Source: Escherichia phage vB_EcoP_EP32B
Reading direction: 5' to 3' (one strand)
Length of the DNA stretch: 64,000 nucleotides
Sequence record: OR544955
A program made the translations under genes and the position numbers. The notes beneath the pieces are model-generated. The model saw only the letters and a program-made list of their open reading frames with translations, was not told the DNA's origin and ran no database searches. The first letter of the stretch is position 1. Each line of letters begins with the position of its first letter. Positions 1,976 to 56,154 of the stretch are shown here, one piece after another.

Positions 1976-1976
1976 T

Positions 1977-2903: not shown

Positions 2904-4717
2904 AAATTGAAAAAGAAATTGAAGGATTAATTCGTAAAACTAATAAAGATCTTTTAAACGAGAATGCTAATAAAGATTCTCGTGTTTTTCCAACTCAACG
3001 GGACCTTATGGCTGGTATTGTGTCTAAGCACATTGCCAAAAATATGGTCCCGTCTTTTATTATGAAAGCGCATGAAAGTGGAATTATCCACATGCATGAT
3101 ATTGATTATTCTCCTGCTCTTCCGTTTACTAATTGTTGTTTAGTCGATTTAAAGGGGATGCTTGAGAACGGATTTAAATTAGGCAATGCTCAAATTGAAA
3201 CGCCTAAATCGATTGGTGTTGCTACTGCAATTATGGCACAAATTACTGCACAAGTTGCTTCACATCAGTATGGCGGAACTACATTTGCAAATGTCGATAA
3301 AGTTCTTTCTCCTTATGTTAAACGCACATACGCTAAACATGTTGAAGATGCGGAAAAATGGCAAATCGCTGATGCGTTGAATTATGCTCAATCCAAAACA
3401 GAAAAAGATGTCTATGACGCGTTCCAAGCTTATGAATATGAAGTAAATACTCTCTTTAGTTCAAATGGGCAAACGCCTTTTGTAACAATTACATTTGGTA
3501 CGGGAACCGACTGGACTGAACGAATGATTCAGAAGGCAATTCTTAAAAACCGCATTAAAGGTCTTGGTCGTGATGGAATAACTCCTATTTTCCCTAAGCT
3601 TGTTATGTTTGTTGAAGAAGGTGTTAATCTTTATAAAGATGATCCGAACTATGATATTAAGCAGCTTGCTCTAGAGTGTGCAAGTAAAAGGATGTATCCT
3701 GACATTATTTCGGTTAAGAATAATAAAGCTATTACCGGTTCTTCAATTCCAGTTTCTCCAATGGGTTGCCGTAGTTTCTTGGGCGTATGGAAAGATTCGA
3801 CTGGTAATGAAATTCTTGATGGACGTAATAATCTCGGTGTTGTAACGCTGAATCTTCCTCGAATTGCGTTAGATTCTTATATTGGAACACAATTTAACGA
3901 ACAGAAATTTGTTGAATTATTCAATGAACGAATGGATTTGTGTTTTGAAGCATTGATGTGTAGAATTAGTTCCTTAAAAGGAGTTAAAGCGACTGTTGCT
4001 CCTATTCTTTACCAAGAAGGTGCATTCGGGGTTCGTCTTAAACCCGATGACGATATAATTGAGTTATTTAAAAACGGTAGAAGTTCAGTGTCCTTAGGAT
4101 ACATTGGTATTCACGAATTGAATATTCTTGTTGGTCGTGATATTGGACAAGAAATTTTAACTAAAATGAATGCTCTTCTTAAACAATGGACTGAAAGAAC
4201 TGGGTTTGCTTTTAGCTTGTATTCTACACCTGCTGAAAACCTTTGTTATCGTTTCTGTAAACTAGACACAGAAAAATATGGAAGTGTAAAGGATGTTACT
4301 GATAAAGGATGGTATACTAACAGTTTCCACGTTTCAGTAGAAGAAAATATTACTCCGTTTGAAAAGATTTCTCGTGAAGCACCATATCATTTCATTGCGA
4401 CAGGTGGTCACATTTCTTATGTTGAACTTCCTGATATGAAAAACAACCTAAAAGGACTTGAGGCTGTATGGGATTATGCTGCACAGCATTTAGATTATTT
4501 TGGTGTTAATATGCCAGTAGATAAATGTTTTACATGTGGAAGTACCCATGAAATGACTCCGACTGAAAATGGATTTGTTTGTTCTATTTGTGGAGAAACT
4601 GATCCTAAAAAGATGAACACAATAAGAAGAACATGCGGCTATTTGGGGAATCCGAACGAACGAGGATTTAATCTCGGCAAAAATAAAGAAATCATGCATA
4701 GGGTTAAACACCAATGA
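2900..4717 (+). CDS. nrdD: anaerobic ribonucleoside-triphosphate reductase NrdD
   Basis: 605 aa continuous ORF, glycyl-radical C-terminus (RRTCGYLG), C-terminal zinc Cys cluster. Confidence 0.95.
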   Translation: MKIEKEIEGLIRKTNKDLLNENANKDSRVFPTQRDLMAGIVSKHIAKNMVPSFIMKAHESGIIHMHDIDYSPALPFTNCCLVDLKGMLENGFKLGNAQIETPKSIGVATAIMAQITAQVASHQYGGTTFANVDKVLSPYVKRTYAKHVEDAEKWQIADALNYAQSKTEKDVYDAFQAYEYEVNTLFSSNGQTPFVTITFGTGTDWTERMIQKAILKNRIKGLGRDGITPIFPKLVMFVEEGVNLYKDDPNYDIKQLALECASKRMYPDIISVKNNKAITGSSIPVSPMGCRSFLGVWKDSTGNEILDGRNNLGVVTLNLPRIALDSYIGTQFNEQKFVELFNERMDLCFEALMCRISSLKGVKATVAPILYQEGAFGVRLKPDDDIIELFKNGRSSVSLGYIGIHELNILVGRDIGQEILTKMNALLKQWTERTGFAFSLYSTPAENLCYRFCKLDTEKYGSVKDVTDKGWYTNSFHVSVEENITPFEKISREAPYHFIATGGHISYVELPDMKNNLKGLEAVWDYAAQHLDYFGVNMPVDKCFTCGSTHEMTPTENGFVCSICGETDPKKMNTIRRTCGYLGNPNERGFNLGKNKEIMHRVKHQ

Positions 4718-5184
4718 ATTATGATAGATTTTATCCTTGCGATTTTGTGAATGGCCCTGGTTGCAGGGTCGTTCTTTTCGTTACGGGTTGTTTGCATAAA
4801 TGCGAAGGGTGTTATAATAAATCAACATGGAATGCTAGAAATGGTACTCCATTCACTGGAGAGACACTAGAACAATTAATTGAATGTTTGAATAATGATT
4901 ATATAGAAGGATTGACTATAACCGGAGGAGACCCTCTCTATCCTGATAACCGAGATGTTATTCATCGCATTGCTCAAACAGTAAAAAATCTTTATCCTAA
5001 TAAAAGCATTTGGTTGTGGACAGGATACAAGTTTGAAGATATTAAACAACTAGAAATGCTTAAATATGTTGATGTTATTATTGATGGGAAGTATGAGAAA
5101 AATCTTCCGACTAAAAAGCTGTGGCGAGGATCAGATAATCAGCGACTTTGGTCAAATACCGATGGGGTGTGGAAACATGATTAA
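4714..5184 (+). CDS. nrdG: anaerobic RNR activating enzyme NrdG (radical SAM)
   Basis: 156 aa, CxxxCxxC (CLHKCEGC), translationally coupled to nrdD. Confidence 0.93.
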   Translation: MNYDRFYPCDFVNGPGCRVVLFVTGCLHKCEGCYNKSTWNARNGTPFTGETLEQLIECLNNDYIEGLTITGGDPLYPDNRDVIHRIAQTVKNLYPNKSIWLWTGYKFEDIKQLEMLKYVDVIIDGKYEKNLPTKKLWRGSDNQRLWSNTDGVWKHD

Positions 5185-5294
5185 ATTGAATTACATTATG
5201 GATACTATAAATGATATGATTTTTCGTTTTGGTCCAGAATTTTATTCGCAATATAGTTTAATGATTATCAATGCTTAGTTAATTAAGGGTAAAT

Positions 5295-5510
5295 ATGTAC
5301 AAATTTCGTAAAGGTTTAGCTGATTTTCTTACAACTGTAACGTTCTTTTTGTTTATGGCAGTTGGAGCTATTTTTCTTATTCCTTTTACTGCTGTATTTT
5401 TCGTGATTAGTTTAATTTCTCCGGAAAAGGGTTTATCCTCCAGCGAATTCAATGAACGTTTGGACAAAATTACTAATAAACTGAATTCTGTTCTTGATAA
5501 AAAGGCTTAA
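5295..5510 (+). CDS. small membrane protein
   Basis: 71 aa, long hydrophobic core. Confidence 0.45.
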   Translation: MYKFRKGLADFLTTVTFFLFMAVGAIFLIPFTAVFFVISLISPEKGLSSSEFNERLDKITNKLNSVLDKKA

Positions 5511-5512
5511 TT

Positions 5513-5821
5513 ATGATTAGTTTTGAGATTGAAATTTATGGCATCCCTGAAGAAGTAGGACGTTGTCCAGGATGTTATACTGTTACAAAACTTTTAAAGG
5601 AACTCAATGCTCCTTATACATTTTATAAAGTCCTCACTAATAATGGTAAGATTGAATATGACCGTCCTTTAATCGTATCTCTTGCTAAACGTGCAGGATT
5701 CACTTCACTTAATATTCGTTATCCTGTCATATTTTTAAATGGTAAGAAACAAAAGAATATTGCAGAGTTTAAAAAGTCCTTGATTTCATTAGGATACGAC
5801 TCTGATATCATAGAAGATTGA
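5513..5821 (+). CDS. nrdH: glutaredoxin-like protein NrdH
   Basis: 102 aa, CPGC redox motif, position after nrdG. Confidence 0.8.
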   Translation: MISFEIEIYGIPEEVGRCPGCYTVTKLLKELNAPYTFYKVLTNNGKIEYDRPLIVSLAKRAGFTSLNIRYPVIFLNGKKQKNIAEFKKSLISLGYDSDIIED

Positions 5822-5987
5822 CCAGGTGCTGCCTGGTCTTCTTTATCCCATTTCTAATATAATCCATTGGAATCTTCACTTCACTATCTCCTTGTGCCCC
5901 TCTCAAATCAAAAATATTTTCATAAAACAGTTTACATCCTCAATAGATATGTTAAGATTAACACCATCTACCACAGAGGAAAATAAA

Positions 5988-6170
5988 ATGACAATTGAAG
6001 ATAAAGAAATTAAGGCTGACCAGTACTATTCTGTCAACGGTAATGCAGTACAGATAACCAGAGTTTCAAGCCTGGATGTTTGGTACCGTTCAATCAAATA
6101 TCCAGAAATTGGTGAAATGCTTTGTGACCGTGGTATCTTCTGTTCAATTGCGAAGGAAATTAAGCCATGA
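5988..6170 (+). CDS. hypothetical protein
   Basis: internal ATG of ORF 5826..6170 preceded by AGAGGAAAATAAA. Confidence 0.4.
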   Translation: MTIEDKEIKADQYYSVNGNAVQITRVSSLDVWYRSIKYPEIGEMLCDRGIFCSIAKEIKP

Positions 6171-6394
6171 TTAGTTTAGATTCAAAGAAAGTTGTTCTAA
6201 CCCTTAAAGTTAATGCGATTTGCATGTTGAAATTGCTAATGGCGTTCGTACTTATCAAGCAAATAAAACTCATTGGGATTATATCCCGATGTTGACGCTT
6301 ACTCAGCGTTTAGAATCAATCGGTCTTAAAGACCTTTCAGTAAGTGAAGTGAATTTTATCAAACGCGTTGTATCAATCAACCTCTGAGGTACTT

Positions 6395-6556
6395 ATGGGT
6401 AAAACGTATCGTCGTAAAGATTTGAAAGTTCGCGATTATGACTATTTTGGTAAACGTAAAGCTCCTGACGGTGTTAGCCACAAAGACATGGTTGAAAACA
6501 TATTCCGCTCTGATAAATGGAAGCGTATGAAAGGCGTTGATTCTGAAGTCAAATGA
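6395..6556 (+). CDS. hypothetical protein
   Basis: ATG preceded by GAGGTACTT. Confidence 0.4.
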   Translation: MGKTYRRKDLKVRDYDYFGKRKAPDGVSHKDMVENIFRSDKWKRMKGVDSEVK

Positions 6557-6693
6557 AATGAATCGACAACTCCGCAAAGAAGTTCGTAAGTTGAAAAAAG
6601 ATGTTTACAGTAAAGAAGAGTATGATTATAATACTTCTCATACTGAAGCCAAACGTAAAGCTAACGAATGTTATCGTTACAGTTGAGGAAATT

Positions 6694-6828
6694 ATGAATA
6701 TCAAACGAATGCTTTTTAAGCAGGGATTATATACTTTAAATGTTAATCCAAAGGGTGATACAACTAAATGGTCTGTAAATGACTGGATTAAGTTCATCGA
6801 TGAAAATGGGGCGTGGAACACAAAATGA
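6694..6828 (+). CDS. hypothetical protein
   Basis: ATG preceded by GAGGAAATT. Confidence 0.35.
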   Translation: MNIKRMLFKQGLYTLNVNPKGDTTKWSVNDWIKFIDENGAWNTK

Positions 6829-7025
6829 ATCCTGAAAATATTGTGTCATGGCAACTTCGTGAAGAACGTGCCGAATTCTTTGCCAATATGAAACTCAACG
6901 GTGTTGAGGATGAAGACTTTTTACGTTGGTTCTGGATTTACAAATACAAAGAATGCCAACATGCTGTGCTATTGACTTGCGCAGTTATGTACGAAGGCTG
7001 GAAAGGCGCTAAAAAGTTCGGTTAA
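6825..7025 (+). CDS. hypothetical protein
   Basis: ATGA overlap coupling. Confidence 0.4.
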   Translation: MNPENIVSWQLREERAEFFANMKLNGVEDEDFLRWFWIYKYKECQHAVLLTCAVMYEGWKGAKKFG

Positions 7026-7088
7026 TAATATACAACGATAGGAAGATAATAACATGACTTCCTATCGTCTTAAAATGAGGAAAATATC

Positions 7089-7328
7089 ATGGCCCAAGAA
7101 TTAGATTTTATCAAATTCAAAAAACACCTCGACGTTAAAATTGGGGATTCAATTGTTAGGATTGAGTATGACATTTTAACAGATGCTATTACTGTTAGTT
7201 GTGATGGAAATAGTTTCAGCTTCGATACAACCGAAAACAAATACCCAATATATAAAGGTATCTTTGATATGGGTGTCGATATCAGCCCACGCGATACAAA
7301 TTACTTGCTTTTCATGCTTAAAAAATAG
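7089..7328 (+). CDS. hypothetical protein
   Basis: 79-aa ORF with RBS. Confidence 0.45.
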   Translation: MAQELDFIKFKKHLDVKIGDSIVRIEYDILTDAITVSCDGNSFSFDTTENKYPIYKGIFDMGVDISPRDTNYLLFMLKK

Positions 7329-7358
7329 TGTACAGACTCTTGAGAGCAGAGTATAATG
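7328..7358 (+). promoter_or_regulatory. early promoter
   Basis: -35 TGTACA, 17-nt spacer, -10 TATAAT; duplicate of 51186-51216. Confidence 0.6.
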
Positions 7359-7394
7359 CCCTCGTTGGATAATAAAATAACCGAGGAAAATAAT

Positions 7395-7727
7395 ATGTCT
7401 ACTAAAATCAAAAACGTAGTTAATTCTTTCGCTTTCGATAAAGTTGTTGCTCTTCTGGAATCCGGCAATATTGTTACTCCTCAAGTTCTTGACGCGTGGG
7501 AATTCCGTCTTTATGAAATCATGCAAAAACACGACCAGAAAATTGGACGTAATTCTATTCGTGAAATTCTAGTACAATATATTCTTTCTGAATTTGACGT
7601 TGCTGCATTTGGTGTTGAATCTAAAGCTTATCAGAAACATGAAATCTCTGAAAAGACTATCCGTCGTATGAAAAATCAACGTAAGAAAAAATTCGCTGAC
7701 TTGAAAATTGTTAAGGCGGTAAAATGA
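7395..7727 (+). CDS. hypothetical protein
   Basis: RBS GAGGAAAATAAT, downstream of early promoter 7328-7358. Confidence 0.5.
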   Translation: MSTKIKNVVNSFAFDKVVALLESGNIVTPQVLDAWEFRLYEIMQKHDQKIGRNSIREILVQYILSEFDVAAFGVESKAYQKHEISEKTIRRMKNQRKKKFADLKIVKAVK

Positions 7728-7951
7728 GCGTATTAACAGAAACTTTGATTAATGACCTGCGTCTAGCTGGTTACGAAGTTGGTACAAATAGCCTAGGTCT
7801 TCCTCAGATTGAAGGTCCTGGATTTATTTTGGAATATGAATTCAAACAATGGTGGTTATATGCTACGGTTGACGATGCGTTGAATATTGATTTCGTTGAC
7901 CAATTTGATTCGCTGGATGCTGCTCTTGAAGCAGCAAAGGAACTAGAATGA
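7724..7951 (+). CDS. hypothetical protein
   Basis: ATGA-coupled ORF. Confidence 0.5.
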   Translation: MSVLTETLINDLRLAGYEVGTNSLGLPQIEGPGFILEYEFKQWWLYATVDDALNIDFVDQFDSLDAALEAAKELE

Positions 7952-8217
7952 AATTAACTCGAATCAGTATAACTGAAGAAAAGCTGGGCGAATTTTATGT
8001 TGACGAATACATGAAAGTTACGTATTTTCCATTCGTTAAAGGTGTTGGTTTTTGGGAAACTCATGTATCTCAATTAAACGAAGGCGACTATAACGAAACA
8101 CATGAGAACTTTTTAGATTTTCTTTATAATGCCGGTCTTACTGAGCTTTATATCGATATCCATGAGTTCAAACGTTTAATGGAAAAAGTGTTTCAGGCTT
8201 ATTGTTTGCTCCGATAG
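7948..8217 (+). CDS. hypothetical protein
   Basis: ATGA-coupled ORF. Confidence 0.5.
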   Translation: MKLTRISITEEKLGEFYVDEYMKVTYFPFVKGVGFWETHVSQLNEGDYNETHENFLDFLYNAGLTELYIDIHEFKRLMEKVFQAYCLLR

Positions 8218-8224
8218 TATCTCG

Positions 8225-8268
8225 TGCTTTAAGATAGGTCTCTAAATATTATGATATAATAGACCTAT
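8225..8268 (+). promoter_or_regulatory. gene 55 promoter region: MotA box plus -10, with 8-bp inverted repeat around a second TATAAT
   Basis: TGCTTTA 8225-31; TAAATAT 8243-49; IR ATAGGTCT 8234-41 / AGACCTAT 8261-68. Confidence 0.5.
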
Positions 8269-8289
8269 GAATTGAGCCAAGAGGTACTT

Positions 8290-8847
8290 ATGACTGAACA
8301 AAAACCTAAAAATAACTATGTGAATAATAAAGAGCTTCTCGCCGCTATAATCGAGTGGAAAAAGGAGCTCTTAAATAATAAAGACCCAAACAAAATTATT
8401 CGTCAGAATGATACCATCGGTTTAGCAATTATGCTTATCGCCGAAGGCCTGTCCAAACGTTTCAACTTTTCAGGATATACCCAGTCTTGGAAGCAGGAGA
8501 TGATTGCAGATGGGATTGAAGCCTCTATTAAGGGACTTCATAATTTCGACGAAACTAAGTACAATAACCCACATGCATACATAACTCGAGCTTGTTTTAA
8601 TGCTTTTGTCCAACGTATCAAAAAAGAACGTAAGGAAGTTGCAAAGAAATATAGTTACTTCGTTCATAATGTCTACGACAGTCATGACGATGATATGGTA
8701 GCGTTGGTAGATGAAACGTTTATTCAAGACATCTACGATAAAATGACGCATTATGAAGAATCCGCTTATAAAGCTCCTGGGGCTGAAAAGAAGGAAGTTG
8801 TTAGCGATTCGCCTAGTTTGGATTTTTTATATGAGGATGACAATTGA
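8290..8847 (+). CDS. 55: late-transcription sigma factor gp55
   Basis: 185 aa, [61 protein letters not shown], recalled T4 gp55 match. Confidence 0.93.
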
Positions 8848-9046
8848 CATCTCTAACTACTTAGAAGAACCTTTTGACGAAGCAATCCCTTATTTGGTAA
8901 AACTGTTGGGTCGTGAATTTAAAATTAATTTTGACATCGACCCTTTGAACCCACACGACGTGTCATTTTCGATAAATGGGACTCCAGTTGAGTACGAGTT
9001 CTGTATTGAAGAGGATGGACGTTTTTATTTTAATTTAATGAGATAA
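8831..9046 (+). CDS. hypothetical protein
   Basis: overlaps gene 55 end; start uncertain (8831 or 8837). Confidence 0.35.
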
Positions 9047-9047
9047 T

Positions 9048-9371
9048 ATGACTACCGAGATTATTGAAAATAAAGAAGCAGAAGATGCAGTAGCTAAAAT
9101 GCTACAAGAAATCCAAAAGAAAAATGAAGCTGAAGCACGTAAAAAATCCGAAAAGATTCTTAAAAAGAATCGTTTTGAACTAAACCGTCTTTATGCTCAC
9201 GCTCAAGAAGCAGCAATTCAAAACAACTTCGAAGCTTACGAATATGCTATTAAGAAATCTCGGGATATTCTACGACAACCATATAATGACAAGTTAATTA
9301 AAATCCAGTGGGTTACTACTCGTCAGGCTATTGAGGACATTATTAATGGCGCTAGTTCAAACAAAGTTTAA
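9048..9371 (+). CDS. hypothetical basic coiled-coil protein
   Basis: 107-aa ORF. Confidence 0.5.
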   Translation: MTTEIIENKEAEDAVAKMLQEIQKKNEAEARKKSEKILKKNRFELNRLYAHAQEAAIQNNFEAYEYAIKKSRDILRQPYNDKLIKIQWVTTRQAIEDIINGASSNKV

Positions 9372-9552
9372 ACGTCTGAAACTGAACGCAGGGTTCACCC
9401 TTAAATTGGGAGGTCCTCTTTGTGTTAAAATTTCTGAAAAGGAATATCACGACGGTTCTATTACAGAAATTTGTCCGCCTATTGTAAAGGCAGACCCAAA
9501 ACAACTCGTATGGGTCGATTCATTTCAAGTTAAGAAATGGTGGAAACGATGA
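9346..9552 (+). CDS. hypothetical protein
   Basis: ATG after GAGGA. Confidence 0.4.
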   Translation: MALVQTKFKRLKLNAGFTLKLGGPLCVKISEKEYHDGSITEICPPIVKADPKQLVWVDSFQVKKWWKR

Positions 9553-9591
9553 GAGAAATTGATTTAGGCATTTTCTGAGAGGTGCTTATGC

Positions 9592-9765
9592 ATGACGAAC
9601 ATCCCGACTTCTGAAAATTTCGATAAAATCCGTAAAGGCAAAGCAGAAAGAATGAGACGTTTTAAAGAGTCTTATGATAAAGCTAAAGCCGAAGGAACTA
9701 TTACATACAAGCCCATTCGATTTAAAAGTTCAAATGAGCCTCTGTACGGCGTACTATGTGGATAG
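9592..9765 (+). CDS. hypothetical protein (57 aa)
   Basis: ATG after GAGAGG; ends at hairpin terminator. Confidence 0.4.
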   Translation: MTNIPTSENFDKIRKGKAERMRRFKESYDKAKAEGTITYKPIRFKSSNEPLYGVLCG

Positions 9766-9789
9766 GAACTCTTCGGAGTTCCTTTTTTT
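9764..9789 (+). terminator. UUCG-tetraloop hairpin plus T7 run
   Basis: AGGAACTC TTCG GAGTTCCT then TTTTTTT. Confidence 0.75.
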
Positions 9790-9813
9790 GCTTTATAAAC
9801 GGATGATAGAATG
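9786..9813 (+). promoter_or_regulatory. middle (MotA-dependent) promoter upstream of gene 47
   Basis: MotA box TGCTTTA at 9789-9795, -10 TAGAAT at 9807-9812. Confidence 0.55.
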
Positions 9814-9835
9814 AATTAATTAATGAGGAAATAAT

Positions 9836-10855
9836 ATGAAAATTTTGCACTTAGGCGACTTCCATATCGGAGTCAAACAAGACGACCCATGGGTTCAAGA
9901 TATTCAACGTGATGGTATTCGTCAAGCAATTGAATACTCTAAGAAACACGGGATTAAAACTTGGATTCAGTACGGTGATTGGTTTGACGTCCGTAAAGCA
10001 ATAACGCATCGTACAATGGAATTCAATCGTGAAATCGTTGATATGATTTCTAAAGCAGGCATTCACGTTCATGTCACGATAGGAAACCATGACATGGCGT
10101 TTAAGAATACAATAACACCTAACACTGTTTCTGAATTGTTAACTCAATTTGAAAACTTTACTATTTACGAACATCCAACTACTGTAGATTTTGACGGATG
10201 TCTGATTGATATCGTTCCATGGATGTGTGAAGAAAATACAGGTGAAATCTTAGAGCACATCAAGACTTCTTCTGCGGCGTATTGTGTTGGTCACTGGGAA
10301 CTGAACGGCTTCTATTTCTATAAAGGAATGAAGTCTCATGGGCTTGAACCTGATTTCTTAAAGACCTATAAACAAGTTTGGTCCGGCCACTTCCACACAA
10401 TCTCTGAAGCTGCTAACGTCAAATATATTGGAACACCGTGGACCCTTACTGCAGGCGATGAGAACGATCCTCGCGGATTCTGGGTATTTGACACTGATGT
10501 TGAACGTATGGAATTTATTCCTAATGAAACAACATGGCATCGACGAATCACTTATCCATTTAAAGGCAAAATCAATTATTCTGATTATACTAATCTAGCC
10601 GTACGTGTTATAGTATCAGAAATTGATTCAGAGTTGACTAAGTTTGAATCTGAACTTGAAAAAGTAGTTCACTCTCTTCGTATGGTTTCTAAAGTTGATA
10701 ACAGTGTTGAATCTGATGACGACCAGGAAATCGAGATTAAATCACTTCAAGATATCATTAAAGAATATATTGACGCGATTCCGGATATCTCAGACGAAGA
10801 CAGAGAAGCGCTGGTCAAATATTCAAACGAACTTTATATTGAGGCAACACAATGA
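9836..10855 (+). CDS. 47: recombination endonuclease subunit gp47 (Mre11-like)
   Basis: 339 aa, phosphoesterase motifs LHLGDFH, GDWFD, GNHD, GHWE, GHFH. Confidence 0.95.
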   Translation: MKILHLGDFHIGVKQDDPWVQDIQRDGIRQAIEYSKKHGIKTWIQYGDWFDVRKAITHRTMEFNREIVDMISKAGIHVHVTIGNHDMAFKNTITPNTVSELLTQFENFTIYEHPTTVDFDGCLIDIVPWMCEENTGEILEHIKTSSAAYCVGHWELNGFYFYKGMKSHGLEPDFLKTYKQVWSGHFHTISEAANVKYIGTPWTLTAGDENDPRGFWVFDTDVERMEFIPNETTWHRRITYPFKGKINYSDYTNLAVRVIVSEIDSELTKFESELEKVVHSLRMVSKVDNSVESDDDQEIEIKSLQDIIKEYIDAIPDISDEDREALVKYSNELYIEATQ

Positions 10856-11109
10856 CTTTAGATGAATTTAACAATGCCGGGCTTGGGCTTGAAGTTGAAA
10901 TAGACGTTAAAGATGATGATGGATTCGAGAACACTATTAAGTATTGGATTGAGCCATTACGCGTTGAAGGCAATGAAGTTAAAGCCGTTCATGTCTGTAC
11001 CGACTGGGCTATTGAATTTAGCTTTAATATAATGGACACTGATACTCCTGGCTCTATTCTTAAAATGGCTGAAGCGTGTATTGAGGATGCGTATAATGAC
11101 GAAGACTGA
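10852..11109 (+). CDS. hypothetical acidic protein
   Basis: 85-aa ORF coupled to 47. Confidence 0.5.
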   Translation: MTLDEFNNAGLGLEVEIDVKDDDGFENTIKYWIEPLRVEGNEVKAVHVCTDWAIEFSFNIMDTDTPGSILKMAEACIEDAYNDED

Positions 11110-11317
11110 TTATGAAATCCATCGTCATGAATTTAGTATTGGTGACGGTTATATTGGTATAGTTTTATGAGGAGACAACTCCTCGTTTCTTTGGAACCAT
11201 GTATGTTACTTGTGAGTACGCACCAGGTGTTGTTATGTATGCAGAACTAGATGAATATTTTGCTGATAGAGATGACATGTTAAAATATGTAGAGGACTTC
11301 ATTCGAAGAGAATACAT

Positions 11318-12880
11318 ATGAAATCATTTAAATTAAATCGTGTTCGTTATCAAAACATCATGTCAGTAGGTGGGAATCCTATTGATATCCAATTAGATAA
11401 AGTCCAAAAGACATTAATCACTGGTAAAAATGGCGGTGGTAAATCTACGATGTTAGAAGCCATTACTTTCGGACTTTTCGGTAAACCATTTCGTGATGTT
11501 AAGAAAGGACAAATCATTAATAGCATGAACAAGAAAGAGCTCTTAGTTGAGCTTTGGATGGAATTCGATGATAAAAAATACTTCATTAAACGTGGCCAAA
11601 AGCCCAATATTTTCGAAATCTCCGTTGACGGTGTTCGTCTCGATGAATCTGCCAGCAGTCGTGACTTCCAAGAAGAATTTGAACGTAGCATCGGAATGTC
11701 ATACGCGTCTTTTAAACAAATCGTTGTGCTTGGGACGGCAGGGTATACCCCTTTCATGGCTCTTAGCACCCCTGCTCGTAGAAAGCTTGTTGAAGACTTA
11801 TTAGAAGTTGGCACACTCGCTGAAATGGATAAAATCAATAAGTCTCAAGTTCGCGAACTTAATTCTCAGGGACAAGTTCTTGATGCCAAGAAAGATGGTA
11901 TTATCCAACAAATTAAGATTTATAACGAGAATATCGAACGTCAAAAGAAATTATCTGGTGATAATGTAGCGCGTCTACAGAATATGTATGACGACCTAGC
12001 CAAAGAAGCTCGGTCATTAAAAGCAGAAATCGAAGAAGCTAATGAGCGACTACTTAATATCGTTCTTGATGAAGACCCTACTGAGGCATTCAACAAGATA
12101 GGACAAGAAGCATTCTTGATTAAATCTAAAATTGACTCATATAACAAAGTTATTAAGATGTATCATGATGGCGGTACATGTCCTACTTGTGCATCACAGT
12201 TGCACCAGGGTGACCCTATTGTCTCTAAGATTACCGATAAGCTTCATGAATGTAATCACTCATTCGAGCAACTTACATGTCACAGAGATAATCTGAGTGT
12301 CCTAGTGGACGAATATAGAGCTAATGTCAAGACTAAACAGGACCTTGCATCTGATATTCGTACCAAGAAACAAGCAATGATTGCCACTATTGATAAAGCT
12401 AAGAAAGTTAAAGCTGCAATAGAACAAGCCTCAGCAGAATTTATCGACCATGCCGATGAGATAGCTTTGCTTCAAAAAGAACTTGATAAAATCATTAAAA
12501 CAAAATCGGATATCGTTCTTGAAAAATACCATCGTGGTATTATCACAGATATGTTAAAAGATTCTGGTATTAAAGGTGCTATCATTAAAAAATATGTGCC
12601 TCTGTTCAACAAGCAGATTAACCATTATCTTAAAATCATGGAAGCTGATTACGTGTTTTCTATTGACGAAGAATTCAATGAATCTATAAAATCACGTGGC
12701 CGTGAAGAGTTCAGTTATGCTTCATTTAGTCAAGGCGAAAAAGCGCGTATCGATATCGCATTGTTGTTTACATGGCGAGATATTGCTGAAAAGGTCTCTG
12801 GTGTTAAAATCAACACAACGTGTTCATTATTTCTCACAGAGACCATGACCCACAAGCTTATGGACAACATCTTCAAATGA
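11318..12880 (+). CDS. 46: recombination ATPase gp46 (Rad50/SbcC-like); C-terminus disrupted, H-loop segment continues in another frame to 12918
   Basis: Walker A GKNGGGKST, zinc hook CPTC, signature SQGEKARIDIAL; no Walker B in frame; VFIISHRDHDPQ in other frame. Confidence 0.85.
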   Translation: MKSFKLNRVRYQNIMSVGGNPIDIQLDKVQKTLITGKNGGGKSTMLEAITFGLFGKPFRDVKKGQIINSMNKKELLVELWMEFDDKKYFIKRGQKPNIFEISVDGVRLDESASSRDFQEEFERSIGMSYASFKQIVVLGTAGYTPFMALSTPARRKLVEDLLEVGTLAEMDKINKSQVRELNSQGQVLDAKKDGIIQQIKIYNENIERQKKLSGDNVARLQNMYDDLAKEARSLKAEIEEANERLLNIVLDEDPTEAFNKIGQEAFLIKSKIDSYNKVIKMYHDGGTCPTCASQLHQGDPIVSKITDKLHECNHSFEQLTCHRDNLSVLVDEYRANVKTKQDLASDIRTKKQAMIATIDKAKKVKAAIEQASAEFIDHADEIALLQKELDKIIKTKSDIVLEKYHRGIITDMLKDSGIKGAIIKKYVPLFNKQINHYLKIMEADYVFSIDEEFNESIKSRGREEFSYASFSQGEKARIDIALLFTWRDIAEKVSGVKINTTCSLFLTETMTHKLMDNIFK

Positions 12881-12972
12881 GCAAAGTTGGACGATTTACG
12901 GTAATGACTGTTTCATAAACGCTTTAACACGATGTGGTTATAATGACCACATCAAATTAAATGGAGAACAAC

Positions 12973-13161
12973 ATGGAGTATTCAACCGGTCAACATCTTC
13001 TTGTTGTCCCTGAAATTAAAAAATATGTTTTGACCAATACGTTTTCAGGTGAAGAACATATTGTTACTGAACAAATGCTCAAATCTGCTTTTAAAGATGA
13101 GTATAATAAAATAATGTCTAATCGCAATTCCGCATGGACAGTTACCGACTTCTACGAATAA
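12973..13161 (+). CDS. hypothetical protein (T4 45.2 position)
   Basis: 62 aa, RBS GGAG. Confidence 0.55.
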   Translation: MEYSTGQHLLVVPEIKKYVLTNTFSGEEHIVTEQMLKSAFKDEYNKIMSNRNSAWTVTDFYE

Positions 13162-13173
13162 GAGAGAAATAAT

Positions 13174-13590
13174 ATGTTTACTACTGCTAAAGGTTTTACC
13201 GCTGCTGATCTGAAAGTTACTTCTATCCGTACTGACGCTAACCCGCATAACCATAATCGTGTTCGTAAAGCATGGGTCCTGCATTGTGATGACGCAAGTG
13301 CTAAAAAGCTTCAATCTTTGCCACAAGAAACTCGTTTTATGATTTATGGTTTTATTGATAACGATGTATCTGATATGTGGATTCATTTGATGCGTAAGCA
13401 CTATAAAGATTCTATCGAAGCAGGTGCTAAAATCGTTCTTGATAAAGATGGTTCTGAGCGTCTGGAAGATTTCTACTGTGTTGATGCCGATGAACAATTA
13501 ATTGCAGCTGGCGAAATTGTTGCTTCTAAAATTCCAGAATATATTGAATCACTGCCTGAAGCTATTAAAAAGCAGATGGTTGCTGCATAA
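13174..13590 (+). CDS. rpbA: RNA polymerase-binding protein RpbA-like (by synteny)
   Basis: 138-aa ORF between 45.2 and 45. Confidence 0.55.
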   Translation: MFTTAKGFTAADLKVTSIRTDANPHNHNRVRKAWVLHCDDASAKKLQSLPQETRFMIYGFIDNDVSDMWIHLMRKHYKDSIEAGAKIVLDKDGSERLEDFYCVDADEQLIAAGEIVASKIPEYIESLPEAIKKQMVAA

Positions 13591-13632
13591 TAAATTTGTT
13601 ATAAACTTTGAATTGTCTTGAAAGGAAATAAA

Positions 13633-14319
13633 ATGAAACTGTCTAAAGATACTATCGCTATTCTGAAAAACTTTGCCTCTATTAACTCAGGCATTCTGCT
13701 GAGTCAAGGTAAATTTATTATGACTCGTGCAGTTAATGGCACCACTTATGCGGAAGCAAATATCTCTGATGAAATTGATTTTGACGTAGCACTTTATGAT
13801 TTGAATAGCTTCTTAAGCATTTTGAGTCTAGTGTCTGATGATGCTGAAATTTCAATGCACACCGATGGCAATATTAAAATTGCAGACACACGTTCCACAG
13901 TTTATTGGCCTGCCGCTGACAAGAGCACCATTGTTTTTCCTAATAAGCCAATTCAATTCCCAGTGGCTTCTGTGATTACTGAAATTAAAGCTGAAGACCT
14001 TCAACAATTGCTTCGAGTTTCACGTGGTCTTCAGATTGATACAATTGCTATTACAAATAAAGATGGTAAAATTGTTATCAACGGCTATAATAAAGTTGAA
14101 GATTCCGGACTAACTCGTCCTAAGTATTCTTTGACTCTTACCGATTATGATGGCTCTAATAACTTTAACTTTGTAATCAATATGGCTAATATGAAAATCC
14201 AGCCAGGTAACTATAAAGTAATGTTGTGGGGAGCTGGTGATAAAGTTGCAGCTAAGTTTGAAAGCTCTCAAGTAAGTTATGTTATTGCAATGGAAGCCGA
14301 TTCTACTCACGACTTCTAA
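13633..14319 (+). CDS. 45: sliding clamp gp45
   Basis: 228 aa, MKLSKDTIAILKNFASINSGI...ADSTHDF, recalled T4 gp45 match. Confidence 0.95.
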   Translation: MKLSKDTIAILKNFASINSGILLSQGKFIMTRAVNGTTYAEANISDEIDFDVALYDLNSFLSILSLVSDDAEISMHTDGNIKIADTRSTVYWPAADKSTIVFPNKPIQFPVASVITEIKAEDLQQLLRVSRGLQIDTIAITNKDGKIVINGYNKVEDSGLTRPKYSLTLTDYDGSNNFNFVINMANMKIQPGNYKVMLWGAGDKVAAKFESSQVSYVIAMEADSTHDF

Positions 14320-14394
14320 GACAAAGATTTACGTTTAATGTGATACGATTATGGAGGAGAAATCCTCCAGTTTAATGATAATGAGGAAAATTAC

Positions 14395-15357
14395 ATGATT
14401 ACTATCAATTCCAAAGAACACATTCTAGAACAGAAATATCGTCCTTCTTCCATTGACGAATGTATTCTGCCTGCGTATGACCATGAAACATTCAAGTCTT
14501 TAGTATCTAAAGGAAAACTTCCTCATATTATTTTACACTCTCCATCTCCTGGTACCGGTAAAACCACCGTGGCAAAAGCATTATGTAATGATATCAACGC
14601 TGAAATGATGTTTGTCAACGGTTCTGATTGTAAAATTGATTTTGTACGCGGTCCGTTAACTGCATTTGCTCGTTCAGTCTCAATGGAAGGCAAGCCTAAA
14701 GTTATTGTTATTGATGAATTTGACCGTAGTGGCCTCGCCGAATCACAACGTCACCTTCGTACGTTTATGGAAGAATTCTCTAGTAACTGCTCTATTGTTA
14801 TTACTGCTAACAACATTGATGGAATTATTGAACCATTACGTAGCCGTTGTCGAGTTATAGAATTCGGTCGTCCGACTGAAGAAGATAAAATCTCGATGAT
14901 GAAGAAAATGATTCATCGTATGGTTGAAATCTGTAAGAATGAAAATATCGAAATCGCTGATATGAAAGTTGTTGCAGCTCTGGTTAAAAAGAACTTCCCG
15001 GACTTTCGTCGTACAATTGGTCAATTAGACCAGTACTCGTCTAAAGGTGTTCTTGATGCAGGTATTTTGTCTATCGTAACTAATGACCGTGGCACAGTCT
15101 CTGATGTTATCGAAGCAATGAAGAACAAAGATATCAAACAACTTCGTGCATTAGCTCCAAAATATGCTGCAGATTATTCATGGTTCATCGATAAATTAGT
15201 TTCAGAATGTTATGACCAAGTTGCACCTGGTAAAAGTATTATTTCGCTTTATGAAATTGCAGGCGAAAATAATAAGTTTCATGGATTAGCAAGTAATATT
15301 GAATTACATGTTATGTATATGCTTCTTCAACTGACCTGCGAACTGACTTGGAAATAA
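14395..15357 (+). CDS. 44: clamp loader large subunit gp44 (AAA+)
   Basis: Walker A GTGKTT, Walker [12 protein letters not shown] motif. Confidence 0.95.
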
Positions 15358-15358
15358 T

Positions 15359-15922
15359 ATGAACTTATTTGATGATGACGTCCGGCTTAACGAGCACCAA
15401 ATTGCATGGAAGTCTAATGACGCTGATGCGATTCAAAAATGTGCTGACATGTTTAAAGAAAAACCTGAGAATGAATTCTTTAAAATCATTAATGCTATTA
15501 ATGAAAAGAAATCTATGTCAATTGCTCAGGTCGACTACTCAAAATTTATGGTTGAGAACTCATTATCACAGTTCCCGGAATGTATGCCAGCTGTTTACAT
15601 GATGAACTTAGTCGGTTCTGAATTAAGTGATGAAGCGCACTTCAACTATATGATGGCGGCAATTCCGCATGGTCGTCGATTCTCTAAATGGGCTAAACTA
15701 GTCGAAGACACTTCAGAGTTACTAGTTATCAAACTGTTGATGAAACGTTACACAATCAACATGAATGATGCTACCGAGTATAAGCGGCTCCTTGAAAAAA
15801 ATAACAAGCTGCCAATAGTCCTTAAAGAACTGAAGGCCATGGTCACTGATGAGTTTCTCAAAGAAGTTACAAAAAATGTGAAAGAACAAAAACAATTTAA
15901 AAAATTAGCATTGGAATGGTAA
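15359..15922 (+). CDS. 62: clamp loader small subunit gp62
   Basis: 187 aa, coupled to 44. Confidence 0.88.
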
Positions 15923-15924
15923 AA

Positions 15925-16293: not shown

Positions 16294-16297
16294 AGCA

Positions 16298-42684: not shown

Positions 42685-43107
42685 ATGGCTTTTAAAGGTT
42701 TTGAAGTTGGTAAGAAATATCGTATTATCAAAGGTCAAGAAGATAATTTCTTGAGAATTCTTAATACAACTGGTAAACGTCTTAACACTACTCTGCATAC
42801 AGTTTTATTATCAAGAGATTTTATTGTAGAAGAGATGATTGGTTACGGTGTTTCAATGATTGCCGCTGAAACCGATGGACCTGGGCGTACAATCATTAGT
42901 ATGCAAGGTGATATTCTGCTTTATGGTGCAGAATTTAAATTCTTTGAAGAAGTTCCGGAACCAGATACAGCTGTCGATTTCAAAAAAGGCTCTATAGAAT
43001 TTGTTGATGGTTCGGTGATCGTATCAGGCGATGTGGTCATTACAGTTAAAAGTGAACAAGGGCGTTTGGCTGCAATTGATGCACTTCAGAAAATTAAATT
43101 TAAATAA
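42685..43107 (+). CDS. hypothetical protein
   Basis: 140-aa ORF. Confidence 0.5.
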   Translation: MAFKGFEVGKKYRIIKGQEDNFLRILNTTGKRLNTTLHTVLLSRDFIVEEMIGYGVSMIAAETDGPGRTIISMQGDILLYGAEFKFFEEVPEPDTAVDFKKGSIEFVDGSVIVSGDVVITVKSEQGRLAAIDALQKIKFK

Positions 43108-43124
43108 GGGCTTCGGCCCTTTTT
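43106..43124 (+). terminator. UUCG-tetraloop hairpin plus T run
   Basis: AAGGGC TTCG GCCCTT TTT. Confidence 0.7.
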
Positions 43125-43149
43125 GCTTTAGATTTCGGATGATAGAATA
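43121..43149 (+). promoter_or_regulatory. middle (MotA-dependent) promoter upstream of gene 39
   Basis: MotA box TGCTTTA 43124-30, -10 TAGAAT 43143-48; near-identical to cassette at 9786-9813. Confidence 0.55.
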
Positions 43150-43170: not shown

Positions 43171-44988
43171 ATGATTAAAAATGAAATTAAGGTATTGTCA
43201 GATGTAGAACATATTAAGAAACGTAGTGGTATGTATATTGGTTCTTCGGCCAAAGAAGCACATGAGCGTTTTTTGTTTGGTAAATATCAACAAGTTGAAT
43301 ATGTTCCTGGTCTGGTTAAATTAATCGATGAGATTATTGACAACTCGGTTGATGAAGCTATTCGTACATCATTTAAGTTTGCAAATAAAATTGATGTGCA
43401 AATTAAAAATAATCAAGTTTCGGTGGAAGATAACGGGCGTGGTATTCCTCAAGGTTTAGTTACCGACCAAACAGGTGAACAAATTCCTGGGCCTGTAGCA
43501 GCCTGGACTATTCCAAAAGCCGGTGGTAACTTTGGCGATGACTCTGAACGCAAGACTGGTGGTATGAACGGCGTCGGGAGTAGTTTAACTAATATCTTCT
43601 CTACGTTGTTTACAGGCATCACGTCAGATGGCGAAAACGAAATCACTGTTAACTGTTCAAACGGAATGGAAAACAAATCATGGTCTTCTAAGAAATCTAA
43701 AGGTAAAGGCACTAAAGTAATCTTCACTCCTGATTTCTCTTCGTTTGAAGAGCATAATTTATCTCAAATTTATTTAGATATTACTTTAGACCGACTTCAA
43801 ACATTGGCAGTCGTTTATCCTGATATCAAGTTCACATTTAACGGTAAAAAGGTTGATGGTAATTTTAAACGATTTGCTAAACAATTTGGTGAAGATAACA
43901 TCATTCAAGAAAATGATAAAGTCTCTATAGCATTCACAACATCACCAGATGGCTTCCGTCATTTAACTTATGTGAATAACATCCATACTAAAAATGGCGG
44001 TCATCATGTTGAATGTGTAATGGATGATATCTGTGAACATCTTTTACCTGGTATTAAAAAGAAATATAAGGGTATTGAAGTCACTAAAGCTCGTGTTAAA
44101 GAATGCCTCACAATGTTGATGTTTATTAGAGACATGAGCAACATGCGTTTTGATTCTCAGACTAAAGAACGTTTAACGTCAACGTATGGTGATATTCGTA
44201 ATCATATCCAATTAGATGCTAAGAAAATTGCTCAGGCACTTCTTAAAAACGAAGCCTTGATTATGCCTATTGTTGAAGCGGCATTAGCTCGTAAATTGGC
44301 GGCAGAAAAGGCTGCAGAAACTAAAGCGGCTAAAAAGGCAACTAAAGCTAAGGTTCATAAGCATATTAAAGCTAACCAATGTGGTAAAGATGCAGATACG
44401 ACATTGTTCTTAACAGAAGGTGATTCGGCAATTGGTTATCTCATTGATGTTCGTGACCGTGAACTACACGGCGGATTCCCATTACGTGGTAAGGTGATGA
44501 ACAGCTGGGGTATGTCATATGCTGATATGATGAAGAACAAAGAGCTCTTTGATATCTGTGCTATCACAGGTCTTATTCTTGGTGAAAAGGCAGAGAATAC
44601 GAACTATCGTAATATTGCAATTATGACTGATGCAGATCACGACGGTCTTGGAAGTATCTATCCGGCTTTGCTTGCTTTCTTTAGTAATTGGCCCGAATTG
44701 TTTGAACAAGGACGTATTCGCTTTGTTAAAACGCCTGTAATTATTGCACAAATTGGCAAAACTCAAAAATGGTTTTATACTGTAGCTGAGTATGAAGAAG
44801 TTAAAGATACACTGCCTAAGCATAGTATTCGATACATCAAGGGATTAGGCTCACTTGAAAAGTCAGAATATCGTGAAATGATTCAGAACCCTGTGTACGA
44901 CGTAGTTAAACTTCCTGAAAATTGGAAAGAACTCTTTGAAATGTTGATGGGTGATGATTCAGAACTTCGTAAAGAATGGATGTCCTAA
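43171..44988 (+). CDS. 39: DNA topoisomerase II large subunit gp39 (GyrB-like; 39 and 60 fused)
   Basis: 605 aa; GHKL ATPase motifs, TOPRIM; single continuous ORF. Confidence 0.95.
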   Translation: MIKNEIKVLSDVEHIKKRSGMYIGSSAKEAHERFLFGKYQQVEYVPGLVKLIDEIIDNSVDEAIRTSFKFANKIDVQIKNNQVSVEDNGRGIPQGLVTDQTGEQIPGPVAAWTIPKAGGNFGDDSERKTGGMNGVGSSLTNIFSTLFTGITSDGENEITVNCSNGMENKSWSSKKSKGKGTKVIFTPDFSSFEEHNLSQIYLDITLDRLQTLAVVYPDIKFTFNGKKVDGNFKRFAKQFGEDNIIQENDKVSIAFTTSPDGFRHLTYVNNIHTKNGGHHVECVMDDICEHLLPGIKKKYKGIEVTKARVKECLTMLMFIRDMSNMRFDSQTKERLTSTYGDIRNHIQLDAKKIAQALLKNEALIMPIVEAALARKLAAEKAAETKAAKKATKAKVHKHIKANQCGKDADTTLFLTEGDSAIGYLIDVRDRELHGGFPLRGKVMNSWGMSYADMMKNKELFDICAITGLILGEKAENTNYRNIAIMTDADHDGLGSIYPALLAFFSNWPELFEQGRIRFVKTPVIIAQIGKTQKWFYTVAEYEEVKDTLPKHSIRYIKGLGSLEKSEYREMIQNPVYDVVKLPENWKELFEMLMGDDSELRKEWMS

Positions 44989-53562: not shown

Positions 53563-54195
53563 ATGTCTAAAGTTACTTACATCATCAAAGCTTCTGAAAA
53601 CGCTCTGAATGAAAAAACTGCTGCAATAATGGTTTATATCATTAAGAACAACTTCACCACTGCTGCCAATGTCCGTGAAGCTCTGGAAGCAGAATACAGT
53701 GCATCAGTTGTTAACTCTAACATTGGTGTATTGATTAAGAAAGGTTTAGTCGAAAAATCCGGTGATGGACTTGTAGCAACAGGCGAAGCAATGGATATTA
53801 TCCAAAAAGCTGCAGACCTCTTTGCCCAAGAAAATGCTCCAGAACTTCTTCAGAAACGTAACACCAGAAAAGCACGTGGAGTTACTCCTGAAATGCATGA
53901 ACTAGCAAACTTTGTTTTTGAAAATATTAAAGATAAAGTTGAAGTTAAAGAAATTGGTGAAAACCGTAGTAACTTAGAAGTTCGATTTGCAAAACGAGTT
54001 CTAGGTATTCGTCAGATCGAAATTCGTCGAGATGGTTCTCTTAGAATCTTTGCATACAACATGTCAGAAACTGAATCAAAGCTGTTTACTTCTCTTGAAA
54101 ATGATGTTAAGATTAAGATCGGTGGTAAATATACTTACATTGACTTCCCTAATGTGTCCAAAGAAATCATTACCCTTGTAACTAACGTACTGTGA
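53563..54195 (+). CDS. motA: middle-transcription activator MotA
   Basis: 210 aa; MSKVTYIIKAS..NSNIGVLIKKGLVEKSGDGL as recalled for T4 MotA. Confidence 0.9.
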   Translation: MSKVTYIIKASENALNEKTAAIMVYIIKNNFTTAANVREALEAEYSASVVNSNIGVLIKKGLVEKSGDGLVATGEAMDIIQKAADLFAQENAPELLQKRNTRKARGVTPEMHELANFVFENIKDKVEVKEIGENRSNLEVRFAKRVLGIRQIEIRRDGSLRIFAYNMSETESKLFTSLENDVKIKIGGKYTYIDFPNVSKEIITLVTNVL

Positions 54196-55881: not shown

Positions 55882-56154
55882 ATGAATAAAGACATTGAAA
55901 TCGTACGTGAAATTATTACTATTGCTTCTATTTTGATTAAATTCTCTAGGGAAGATATTGTTGAAGACCGAGCAAGTTTCATCGGATTCTTGAATGAGAT
56001 TGGAATTAAAAAAGATGGTCGGCAGCTAAATCAGAATTCGTTCAGAAAACTAATTACAAATTTAACTGCCGAAGAAAAGAAAACACTGATTAGTGAATTC
56101 AATGAAGGTTTTGAAAATATTTATCGTCATTTAGCGATGTATTCTAACAACTAA
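55882..56154 (+). CDS. asiA: anti-sigma-70 factor AsiA
   Basis: 90 aa; REIIT.ASILIKFSREDIVE.RA.FI.FLNEIG...GR.LNQNSFRK as recalled for T4 AsiA. Confidence 0.9.
   Translation: MNKDIEIVREIITIASILIKFSREDIVEDRASFIGFLNEIGIKKDGRQLNQNSFRKLITNLTAEEKKTLISEFNEGFENIYRHLAMYSNN

Follow-up and report, generated by a model that had tools for sequence, protein, structure and literature searches.

The closest described counterparts of the two junctions analysed here are the middle promoters P47 and P39 of bacteriophage T4, with published starts at 36576 and 5349, respectively (Hinton 2010, Table 1, citing Guild et al. 1988 and Hsu & Karam 1990). Upstream of 47.1/47 the T4 sequence reads AAAGGGC[TTCG]GCCCTTT-AGCTTTA-TACGGAGTTTGA-TATAAT and upstream of 39 it reads AAAGGCC[TTCG]GGCCTTT-AGCTTTA-TGATTACCGGAG-TATAAT, with a spacer of 12 nt in both cases; the published starts lie exactly 7 nt 3′ of the two TATAAT hexamers. 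The GenBank and RefSeq records of T4 carry no promoter or terminator features. For RB69, middle promoters Pm:40046 (score 22.0) and Pm:5538 (score 16.8) were predicted, as were the TransTerm terminators ‘47<--a-gt.2’ (40044-40061) and ‘60plus39<--RB69ORF005c’ (5535-5546) (Nolan, Petrov & Karam 2006). A second point of comparison is the ‘promoter-early stem-loop’ or PeSL (Arbiol et al. 2010) and its Mot-box version, PmSL (Comeau, Arbiol & Krisch 2014), in which a terminator stem-loop lies directly 5′ of a promoter; for these elements, both the isolation of transcription units and recombination between copies have been demonstrated or proposed.

The window examined here is the whole stretch of 64,000 nucleotides from Escherichia phage vB_EcoP_EP32B (record OR544955). 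The region is 98–99% identical to Mosigvirus phages (the RB69 group, T4-like), with vB_EcoM_SA79RD as the best match, and the plus strand of the window is the early/middle-gene strand. An original prediction, made from the letters of this DNA, had described two cassettes, each a terminator followed by a MotA promoter, and had taken them for a duplicated, portable module. Our analysis indicates that the two sites, hereafter A and B, are very probably the Mosigvirus versions of T4 P47 and P39, each directly adjoining the intrinsic terminator that ends the early unit before it.

Terminators and middle promoters upstream of genes 47 and 39

Both sites show the predicted common architecture, which runs from 9764 to 9812 at site A and from 43106 to 43148 at site B: a C(UUCG)G hairpin, a T-run, TGCTTTA, 11 or 12 nt, respectively, and TGA-TAGAAT. 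The cassettes also lie where they had been placed, upstream of genes 47 and 39, whose ATG codons are at 9836 and 43171. The features of both junctions, together with related elements of the window, are collected in Table 1.

Table 1. Coordinates of features at sites A and B and of related elements in the window
Feature	Position	Strand	Remarks
Leader upstream of the 55.2 orthologue, GGATAATAAAA	7367	+	GGAKRAYARAA match
Early ORF, a-gt.2 family (DUF5486)	9592..9765	+	5′ neighbour of site A
Terminator hairpin A, AGGAACTC[TTCG]GAGTTCCT (RNA AGGAACTC[UUCG]GAGUUCCU)	9764..9783	+	8 bp stem, C(UUCG)G tetraloop
T-run A running into MotA box TGCTTTA	9783..9795	+	7 T, ends 9789; box 9789-9795
Spacer A TAAACGGATGA (11 nt) and extended -10	9796..9812	+	TG 9804-9805; hexamer TAGAAT 9807-9812
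RegB/S1-consensus 11-mer GGATGATAGAA, site A	9801..9811	+	11/11 positions; predicted cut between 9802 and 9803
Predicted middle-transcript start, A residue, site A	9819	+	7 nt past -10, by analogy with T4 P47/P39
Gene 47, Mre11/SbcD-like recombination nuclease subunit	9836..10855	+	339 aa, ATG 9836
Early-gene Shine-Dalgarno sequence	29055	+	GGAKRAYARAA match
ORF homologous to RB69 ORF005c	42685..43107	+	5′ neighbour of site B
Terminator hairpin B, AAGGGC[TTCG]GCCCTT	43106..43121	+	6 bp stem, UUCG loop
T-run B running into MotA box TGCTTTA	43120..43130	+	5 T; box 43124-43130
Spacer B GATTTCGGATGA (12 nt) and extended -10	43131..43148	+	TG 43140-43141; hexamer TAGAAT 43143-43148
RegB/S1-consensus 11-mer GGATGATAGAA, second copy, site B	43137..43147	+	predicted cut between 43138 and 43139
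Predicted middle-transcript start, A residue, site B	43155	+	by analogy with T4
Gene 39, topoisomerase II large subunit, fused 39+60 form	43171..44988	+	605 aa, ATG 43171
motA, activator required by these promoters	53563..54195	+	Pfam MotA_activ 2e-39, plus MotCF
asiA, co-activator and anti-sigma factor	55882..56154	+	Pfam AsiA 2e-32

The promoter halves of the two cassettes agree with the definition of a MotA-dependent middle promoter. The MotA box consensus, (a/t)(a/t)(a/t)TGCTT(t/c)A centred near -30, is matched by TTTTGCTTTA at sites A and B, and at site A the T-run doubles as the A/T-rich 5′ portion of this consensus. A -10 hexamer of the form TAnnnT follows within the 12 ± 1 bp that separate box and hexamer in such promoters (spacers of 11 and 12 bp), and neither site has a usable -35. 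For site A, no -35/-10 promoter ending at 9812 was found among the 60 sites listed, out of 71, by a generic sigma-70 scan of positions 1-20000, the range that the scan covered; for site B, the absence of a usable -35 was judged by reading the sequence. Since the window encodes both motA and asiA, the factors invoked for the two sites are present. The 7-nt rule of T4 P47 and P39 sets the expected starts at A9819 and A43155. Finally, the predicted promoters and terminators of RB69 occupy the two intergenic gaps that match sites A and B. RB69 and the window are identical at P39 and differ at P47 by one T of the run and by the hexamer (TAAAAT versus TAGAAT). With the promoter definition, the presence of motA and asiA, orthology to T4 P47 and P39 and the RB69 predictions all pointing the same way, the proposal of a terminator followed by a MotA/AsiA promoter is well supported.

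The hairpins have the form and the location of intrinsic terminators. Stable, G+C-rich stems of 8 and 6 bp are capped by UUCG loops and followed by 7 and 5 T's, respectively, and the stop codons of the upstream ORFs overlap the stems: the first two stem bases are shared with the TAG (9763-9765) of the a-gt.2-family ORF at site A and with the TAA (43105-43107) of the ORF005c homologue at site B. The 41-nt stretch 9755-9795, which contains hairpin A, folds at -13.2 kcal/mol (z = -4.1). Hairpin B alone folds at -9.3 kcal/mol, with a z-score of only -1.7 for the surrounding 34-nt stretch. Hairpin A is an annotated rho-independent terminator in the record of SA79RD, a phage 99% identical to the one studied here (WebGeSTer/TransTermHP). 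Together with the RB69 predictions, this annotation means that the promoter and the terminator readings are both already on record for the genus; the terminator–promoter arrangement at both sites is thus a known and ordinary one, the T4 promoters having been mapped and those of RB69 predicted in 2006. A search of the whole window against Rfam returned no family match.

Several UUCG hairpins in the window have no U-run (for example at 16297 and 44987), and the T4 counterparts of hairpins A and B have just three U's 3′ of the stem. C(UUCG)G hairpins are reportedly frequent in T4 intercistronic regions. Intergenic UUCG stem-loops are also mentioned in the RegB literature (Durand et al. 2006; Uzan & Miller 2010). 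Such observations would fit hairpins that act mainly as 3′-end stabilisers, processing barriers or structural punctuation, with the downstream genes expressed largely by read-through. We consider this account, which is compatible with our main explanation, quite unlikely to be the principal one, because both hairpins of the window have 5–7 U's after the stem and are called terminators by three independent predictors. In T4, genes 3′ of such hairpins are also expressed through read-through, so termination is probably partial. We also considered whether a hairpin specific to read-through RNA masks the Shine-Dalgarno (SD) sequence, as in T4 e, 49 and I-TevI, and found no support for this: folds from the terminator hairpin to the ATG have z-scores of about -1.25 and contain only weak, low-probability helices.

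Taken together, these features suggest how transcription could be handed over at sites A and B. The upstream ORF ends in a stop codon that overlaps the base of a stable C(UUCG)G stem-loop, and most polymerases coming from early promoters farther 5′ would be released by this stem-loop and its U-run. The MotA box TGCTTTA, centred near -30, would take its A/T-rich 5′ portion from the same T-run, with the extended -10 TGnTAGAAT lying 11–12 bp 3′ of the box. MotA and AsiA would then remodel sigma-70, and RNA polymerase would start near A9819 and A43155. The resulting middle RNAs would have short leaders carrying only the SD sequences of genes 47 and 39: a predicted leader of 17 nt with GAGGA at 9825-9829 at site A, and one of 16 nt with GAGGAG at 43160-43165 at site B. 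Insulation of these genes from upstream transcription by hairpins A and B is plausible from the sequence, and the efficiency of termination and the start sites in EP32B are inferred.

Conservation and origin of the two cassettes

The two cassettes had been described as nearly the same in sequence. This holds for two exact blocks, TTTTTGCTTTA (11 nt) and CGGATGATAGAAT (13 nt), in which the identity is concentrated, but not for the hairpin stems, which differ (8 bp versus 6 bp). Each block has exactly two copies in the window, against an expectation of 0.00 from shuffles in the case of CGGATGATAGAAT. Sites that combine a Mot box with a -10 number 20 in the window versus 4.8 expected, and 20 were reached in none of 100 shuffles. 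When the 13 nt ending at the -10 were compared among plus-strand Mot-box/-10-like sites, A and B agreed at 13/13 positions, the best of 171 pairs, with 11 for the runner-up. The copy number of the 13-mer and this best-of-171 similarity indicate that the likeness is real and not due to chance.

Part of the shared block is nevertheless ordinary promoter consensus, because TGA-TAGAAT is an extended -10 (TGn plus TAnnnT). One could suppose that, beyond the Mot box, TGn and TAnnnT, all of which belong to this consensus, the extra identity (the four bases CGGA and the G of TAGAAT) is functionless and coincidental, some close pair being expected among 171 pairs of candidate sites. We regard this as unlikely. 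The next pair after the 13/13 of sites A and B reaches 11/13, the identical pair is the sole pair with abutting terminators, and the block is invariant in a Mosigvirus phage whose flanks are 86% identical. In that phage, PNJ-9 (flanks ~86% identical), the P39 cassette is unchanged and the P47 cassette has two changes, one in a T of the run and one in a leader base.

To place the cassettes in an evolutionary context, the regions upstream of genes 47 and 39 were compared in JS98, VR25, Melville, PNJ-9 and ~30 paired IMG/VR T4-like genomes. The same series of elements, from the stop codon through hairpin, T-run, Mot box and spacer to the -10, occurs at both loci in Tequatrovirus, Mosigvirus, Dhakavirus, Gaprivervirus and at least four further lineages. 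Gelderlandvirus has kept the promoters and lacks the hairpins; Moonvirus-like phages and one further lineage retain the hairpin at P47 only. The stems vary in sequence (GGGC/GCCC, GGCC/GGCC, GGAGC/GCUCC, GGAAGC/GCUUCC, GGAACUC/GAGUUCC and GGACC/GGUCC), yet all 17 orthologous cassettes with differing stems examined at the two loci fold, at -9 to -14 kcal/mol, which is a signature of selection on structure. An alignment of 14 P47 cassettes shows no variation in the GCT of the Mot box or in TA.AAT of the -10. The genes found 5′ of 47 differ from genus to genus, and the cassettes remain in place.

These comparisons do not bear out the idea of a duplicated portable module: the cassettes occupy the same two positions in T4, RB69, JS98, VR25 and further lineages, and their hairpins are unlike each other. 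With the layout fixed at both loci in at least eight lineages and with differing stems that all fold, the sites appear to be old junctions and not the product of a recent duplication or a mobile module. Portability also found no support in a motif search that covered the window and 50 kb from the start of each of the RB69 and JS98 genomes, in which no third tight copy was present. A candidate third cassette at 51921 (an 11-bp UUCG hairpin plus TGCTTAC) was rejected, as it falls within a small hydrophobic ORF, lacks a U-run and is wrongly spaced. The RB69 PuvsX terminator and Pm were likewise rejected as an example of the same tight design, the hairpin being 13 nt from the box and without a U-run. 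In a degenerate scan of IMG/VR (‘CTTCGG..TTT..GCTTTA’), the matches listed were singles scattered over contigs of varied size and origin.

Nor do the two cassettes of one genome appear to have been homogenised. In a test on nine lineages, the identity of P47 to P39 within genomes (0.75 for the upstream half, 0.63 for the downstream half and 0.70 for the whole) was not above that between genomes, with permutation p = 0.59, 0.34 and 0.68, respectively. Within-genome paralogues are thus no more alike than P47 and P39 of different genomes, and systematic concerted evolution of both cassettes was rejected as a general process (p = 0.34-0.68). The likeness of sites A and B probably reflects, for the most part, signals that both junctions need, at positions that are ancient and fixed, and not a recent duplication.

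A more limited exchange has to be weighed separately. The cassettes could be PmSL-type copies that recombine, with CGGATGATAGAAT having passed from the P47 spacer and -10 into P39 by short-patch conversion in the Mosigvirus ancestor. Some patterns are in keeping with this: the Mosigvirus P39 spacer is nearer the P47 spacers of several genera than other P39 spacers, with 0.72-0.83 identity to P47 of the window, JS98, VR25, c2706795356 and c2974546015; the derived TTTAGCTTTAT is common to both T4 cassettes; the hairpin types GGGC-UUCG-GCCC and GGAGC-CUAGU-GCUCC occur at either locus, depending on the lineage; and recombination of PeSL/PmSL has been shown in RB49 and phi1. However, GATT..CGGA is common to the P39 spacers of Mosigvirus and T4, a feature that points to plain inheritance at this locus. 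A tract converted in this way would measure only ~15 nt, with almost no homology 3′ of it, and a crossover between copies 33 kb apart would remove essential genes. Each cassette also keeps its position in every lineage examined, and no genome region scanned holds more than two tight copies. Considering also that the nine lineages gave no sign of general within-genome homogenisation (p = 0.34-0.68), we judge recombining cassettes to be rather improbable, although a single short conversion event in Mosigvirus is possible.

Overlap of the promoters with a RegB/S1 consensus

RegB is a T4 early endoribonuclease that cuts intergenic early RNA between GG and AG and, rarely, between GG and AU (Durand et al. 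2006; Uzan & Miller 2010). For RegB with ribosomal protein S1, the consensus is the 11-nt GGAGRAYARAA, and GGAU is cut if the 3′ part fits; GGAU sites are rarely cut in T4 (2/30) (Durand et al. 2006; Uzan & Miller 2010). Every intergenic T4 GGAG/U has been tested, and the ORF 47.1 site was found to be ‘moderately cleaved’ in vivo (Durand et al. 2006). Going by the sequence, we take this 47.1 GGAG to be the one that lies within the P47 spacer and precedes the 47.1 ATG by 9 nt.

The block shared by sites A and B reads C-GGATGATAGAA-T and fits GGA(G/U)RAYARAA at 11/11 positions at both sites. The window holds four exact matches to GGAKRAYARAA versus 1.06 expected, a number reached in 2/100 shuffles, and all four (9801, 43137, 29055 and 7367) are on the plus strand and non-coding. 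The 11-mer at 7367 is identical to the GGAU sequence upstream of T4 orf 55.2, which is one of the two T4 GGAU sites reported to be cleaved by RegB (Durand et al. 2006). At a threshold of at least 10/11, there are 8 matches on the plus strand of the window versus 2 on the minus strand; by eye, all 8 on the plus strand lie in leaders or SD regions, several having been labelled coding by a crude ORF map. RB69 has an annotated regB, in a part of the genome beyond that spanned by the window, and one RB69 GGAU site is reportedly cleaved.

The motif is also found beyond the window. Among the regions upstream of gene 47, 17 of 55 distinct ones have a site of at least 10/11 in the cassette, versus none in 16.5 kb of adjacent control sequence, and the recurrence of GGA(G/U)RA at P47 across many genera is a further argument against a functionless coincidence at sites A and B. 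In the gene 39 cassette, the RegB motif is found in Mosigvirus and one other lineage only. The -10 hexamer itself dictates the YARAA of the motif, inheritance among orthologues might be enough to explain the spread of the motif at P47, and the 11-mer of T4 P47 itself fits the RegB consensus poorly. Predicted folds leave most of the motif unpaired at site A; at site B they pair part of it, in structures of low probability.

If the motif is functional, RNA that reads through the terminator would carry GGAUGAUAGAA, made up of spacer and -10 sequence, and RegB/S1 would cleave it a short distance before the gene. RNA initiated with MotA would start 8 nt 3′ of the motif and so be immune to cutting. 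Function as a RegB site would explain the 13 bases common to both cassettes; as TATAAT breaks the purine at position 9 of the RegB consensus, it would also explain the unusual hexamers TAGAAT and TAAAAT. It is conceivable, if on balance doubtful, that the promoter DNA of P47, and in Mosigvirus also of P39, doubles in this way as an RNA cleavage signal and has been shaped to GGA(U/G)RAYARAA, giving a three-layer switch in which terminator, RegB site and middle promoter jointly pass genes 47 and 39 from early to middle control. One short DNA segment would then be a start signal and, on read-through RNA only, a destruction signal. Such an overlap would explain the clean early-to-middle hand-over of replication and recombination genes in T4-like phages, as well as the escape of most middle transcripts from RegB.

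Relation to known systems

Collectively, our results mainly confirm that a reader with nothing but the sequence can recognise regulatory punctuation of the T4 type, in this case elements whose mapping in T4 goes back to the late 1980s and whose prediction in RB69 dates from 2006. The overlap with RegB sites is the one new lead of the analysis, modest and easily testable. Like RegB/S1 sites, GGAUGAUAGAA fits the consensus GGA(G/U)RAYARAA and is intergenic on the early-transcribed strand. Unlike known RegB sites, which are mostly GGAG in SD sequences, the candidates recognised from sequence at A and B have GGAU and overlap a promoter -10 instead of an SD.

With T4 P47 and P39, sites A and B share the positions upstream of 47(.1) and 39 and the succession of stop codon, UUCG hairpin, Mot box, 11–12 bp and -10. 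T4 differs in having AGCTTTA, TATAAT and three T's after the stem, where the window has TGCTTTA, TGA-TAGAAT and longer T-runs, and in having the small ORF 47.1, absent from the window, whose ATG overlaps the P47 -10. RB69 belongs to the same genus as the phage studied here and has essentially the same sequence; its promoters and terminators are predictions in supplementary tables, and the text of Nolan, Petrov & Karam (2006) does not remark on the abutting of terminator and promoter.

The anatomy of sites A and B is also that of PeSL/PmSL elements, in particular of the PmSL: a stem-loop adjoins a promoter with a TGCTT Mot box and a -10, followed by an SD and an ATG. PeSLs exist in many copies that cluster in hyperplastic regions, where they border on indels and small dispensable ORFs. 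Sites A and B, in contrast, are two copies 33 kb apart that precede conserved core replication and recombination genes and show no sign of movement. In our comparisons, tight terminator–promoter junctions before core genes have been evolutionarily stable for a long time, unlike the mobile PeSL cassettes of variable regions.

Hairpin-promoter junctions in the window

Beside the P47 and P39 cassettes (UUCG hairpin, T-run, Mot box, spacer and -10 element upstream of genes 47 and 39), the window contains a third junction at which a hairpin is followed by a -10 element, upstream of gene 43. This hairpin lies directly 3′ of the apparent regA stop codon, whose position was deduced from the coordinates of RB69. 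GGAG-TATAAT immediately follows the hairpin, which lacks a U-run. Unlike P47 and P39, the gene 43 junction lacks a canonical Mot box, and its -30 region lies inside the hairpin. The junction also carries GGAGTATAATA, an 11-mer that is found in the T4 P39 spacer.

The hairpin and TTTTTTCTTTAG at the apparent rIIA-rIIB junction are similar to the upstream half (CCCTTTTTGCTTTAG) of the P39 cassette, but no -10 element lies within usable distance and a start codon follows 9 nt on. The likeness may be coincidental, or the element may be a half-cassette that has degraded. Two further composites resemble PeSLs (a terminator stem-loop followed by an early promoter), and their promoters read GTTTACA...17 nt...TATGAT or TAAGAT.

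Features located in the window
Position	Feature	Location
7367	GGAU-type RegB-consensus 11-mer GGATAATAAAA	~+8 of early promoter in 7330-7377
16297-16326	8-bp C(UUCG)G hairpin AATGGGAC[TTCG]GTCCCATT	upstream of gene 43 ATG at 16376
28550-28610	PeSL-like: 9-bp UUCG terminator hairpin, then T4-type early promoter	
33782-33850	PeSL-like: 9-bp UUCG terminator hairpin, then T4-type early promoter	
49597-49640	hairpin GGGGAC[TTCG]GTCCCC, then TTTTTTCTTTAG	apparent rIIA-rIIB junction (by RB69 coordinates)
51223	GGAU-type RegB-consensus 11-mer GGATTACAAAA	~+8 of early promoter in 51190-51233

RegB-type 11-mers at early promoters

The two early-promoter regions carrying 11-mers that match the consensus of the phage RNase RegB share a near-identical -10 element and leader, TGAGAGCAGAGTATAATGC(C/T)CTC.... 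The upstream 11-mer, GGATAATAAAA, is the same sequence as that preceding T4 orf 55.2, for which RegB cleavage has been reported.

Comparison of the cassettes with other phages

In the 260 nt read upstream of gene 47, the P47 cassette is missing, or displaced by an ORF inserted directly upstream of the gene, in some genomes, both JS98-like and other (IMG/VR T4-like contigs L135, L212 and L216). The inserted ORF of L135 contains a Mot-box-like AGCTTTA-12 nt-TAGAAT.

Upstream of RB69 nrdA, the supplementary tables of Nolan et al. 2006 place a predicted terminator hairpin (143221-143239) after the predicted middle promoter (143239-143278) rather than before it, the reverse of the order in P47 and P39.

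In T4, ORF 47.1 and the P47 -10 element overlap: the ATG start codon forms the end of TATAATG (1084-1099 of the compared sequence L002, record 36583-36598), and the GGAG of the P47 spacer is the Shine-Dalgarno sequence of 47.1. Judging from this arrangement, P47 transcripts would never yield the T4 47.1 product, and its translation would depend entirely on read-through early RNA. JS98 and VR26-like phages have a 47.1 with its own Shine-Dalgarno sequence further downstream. Mosigviruses lack 47.1.
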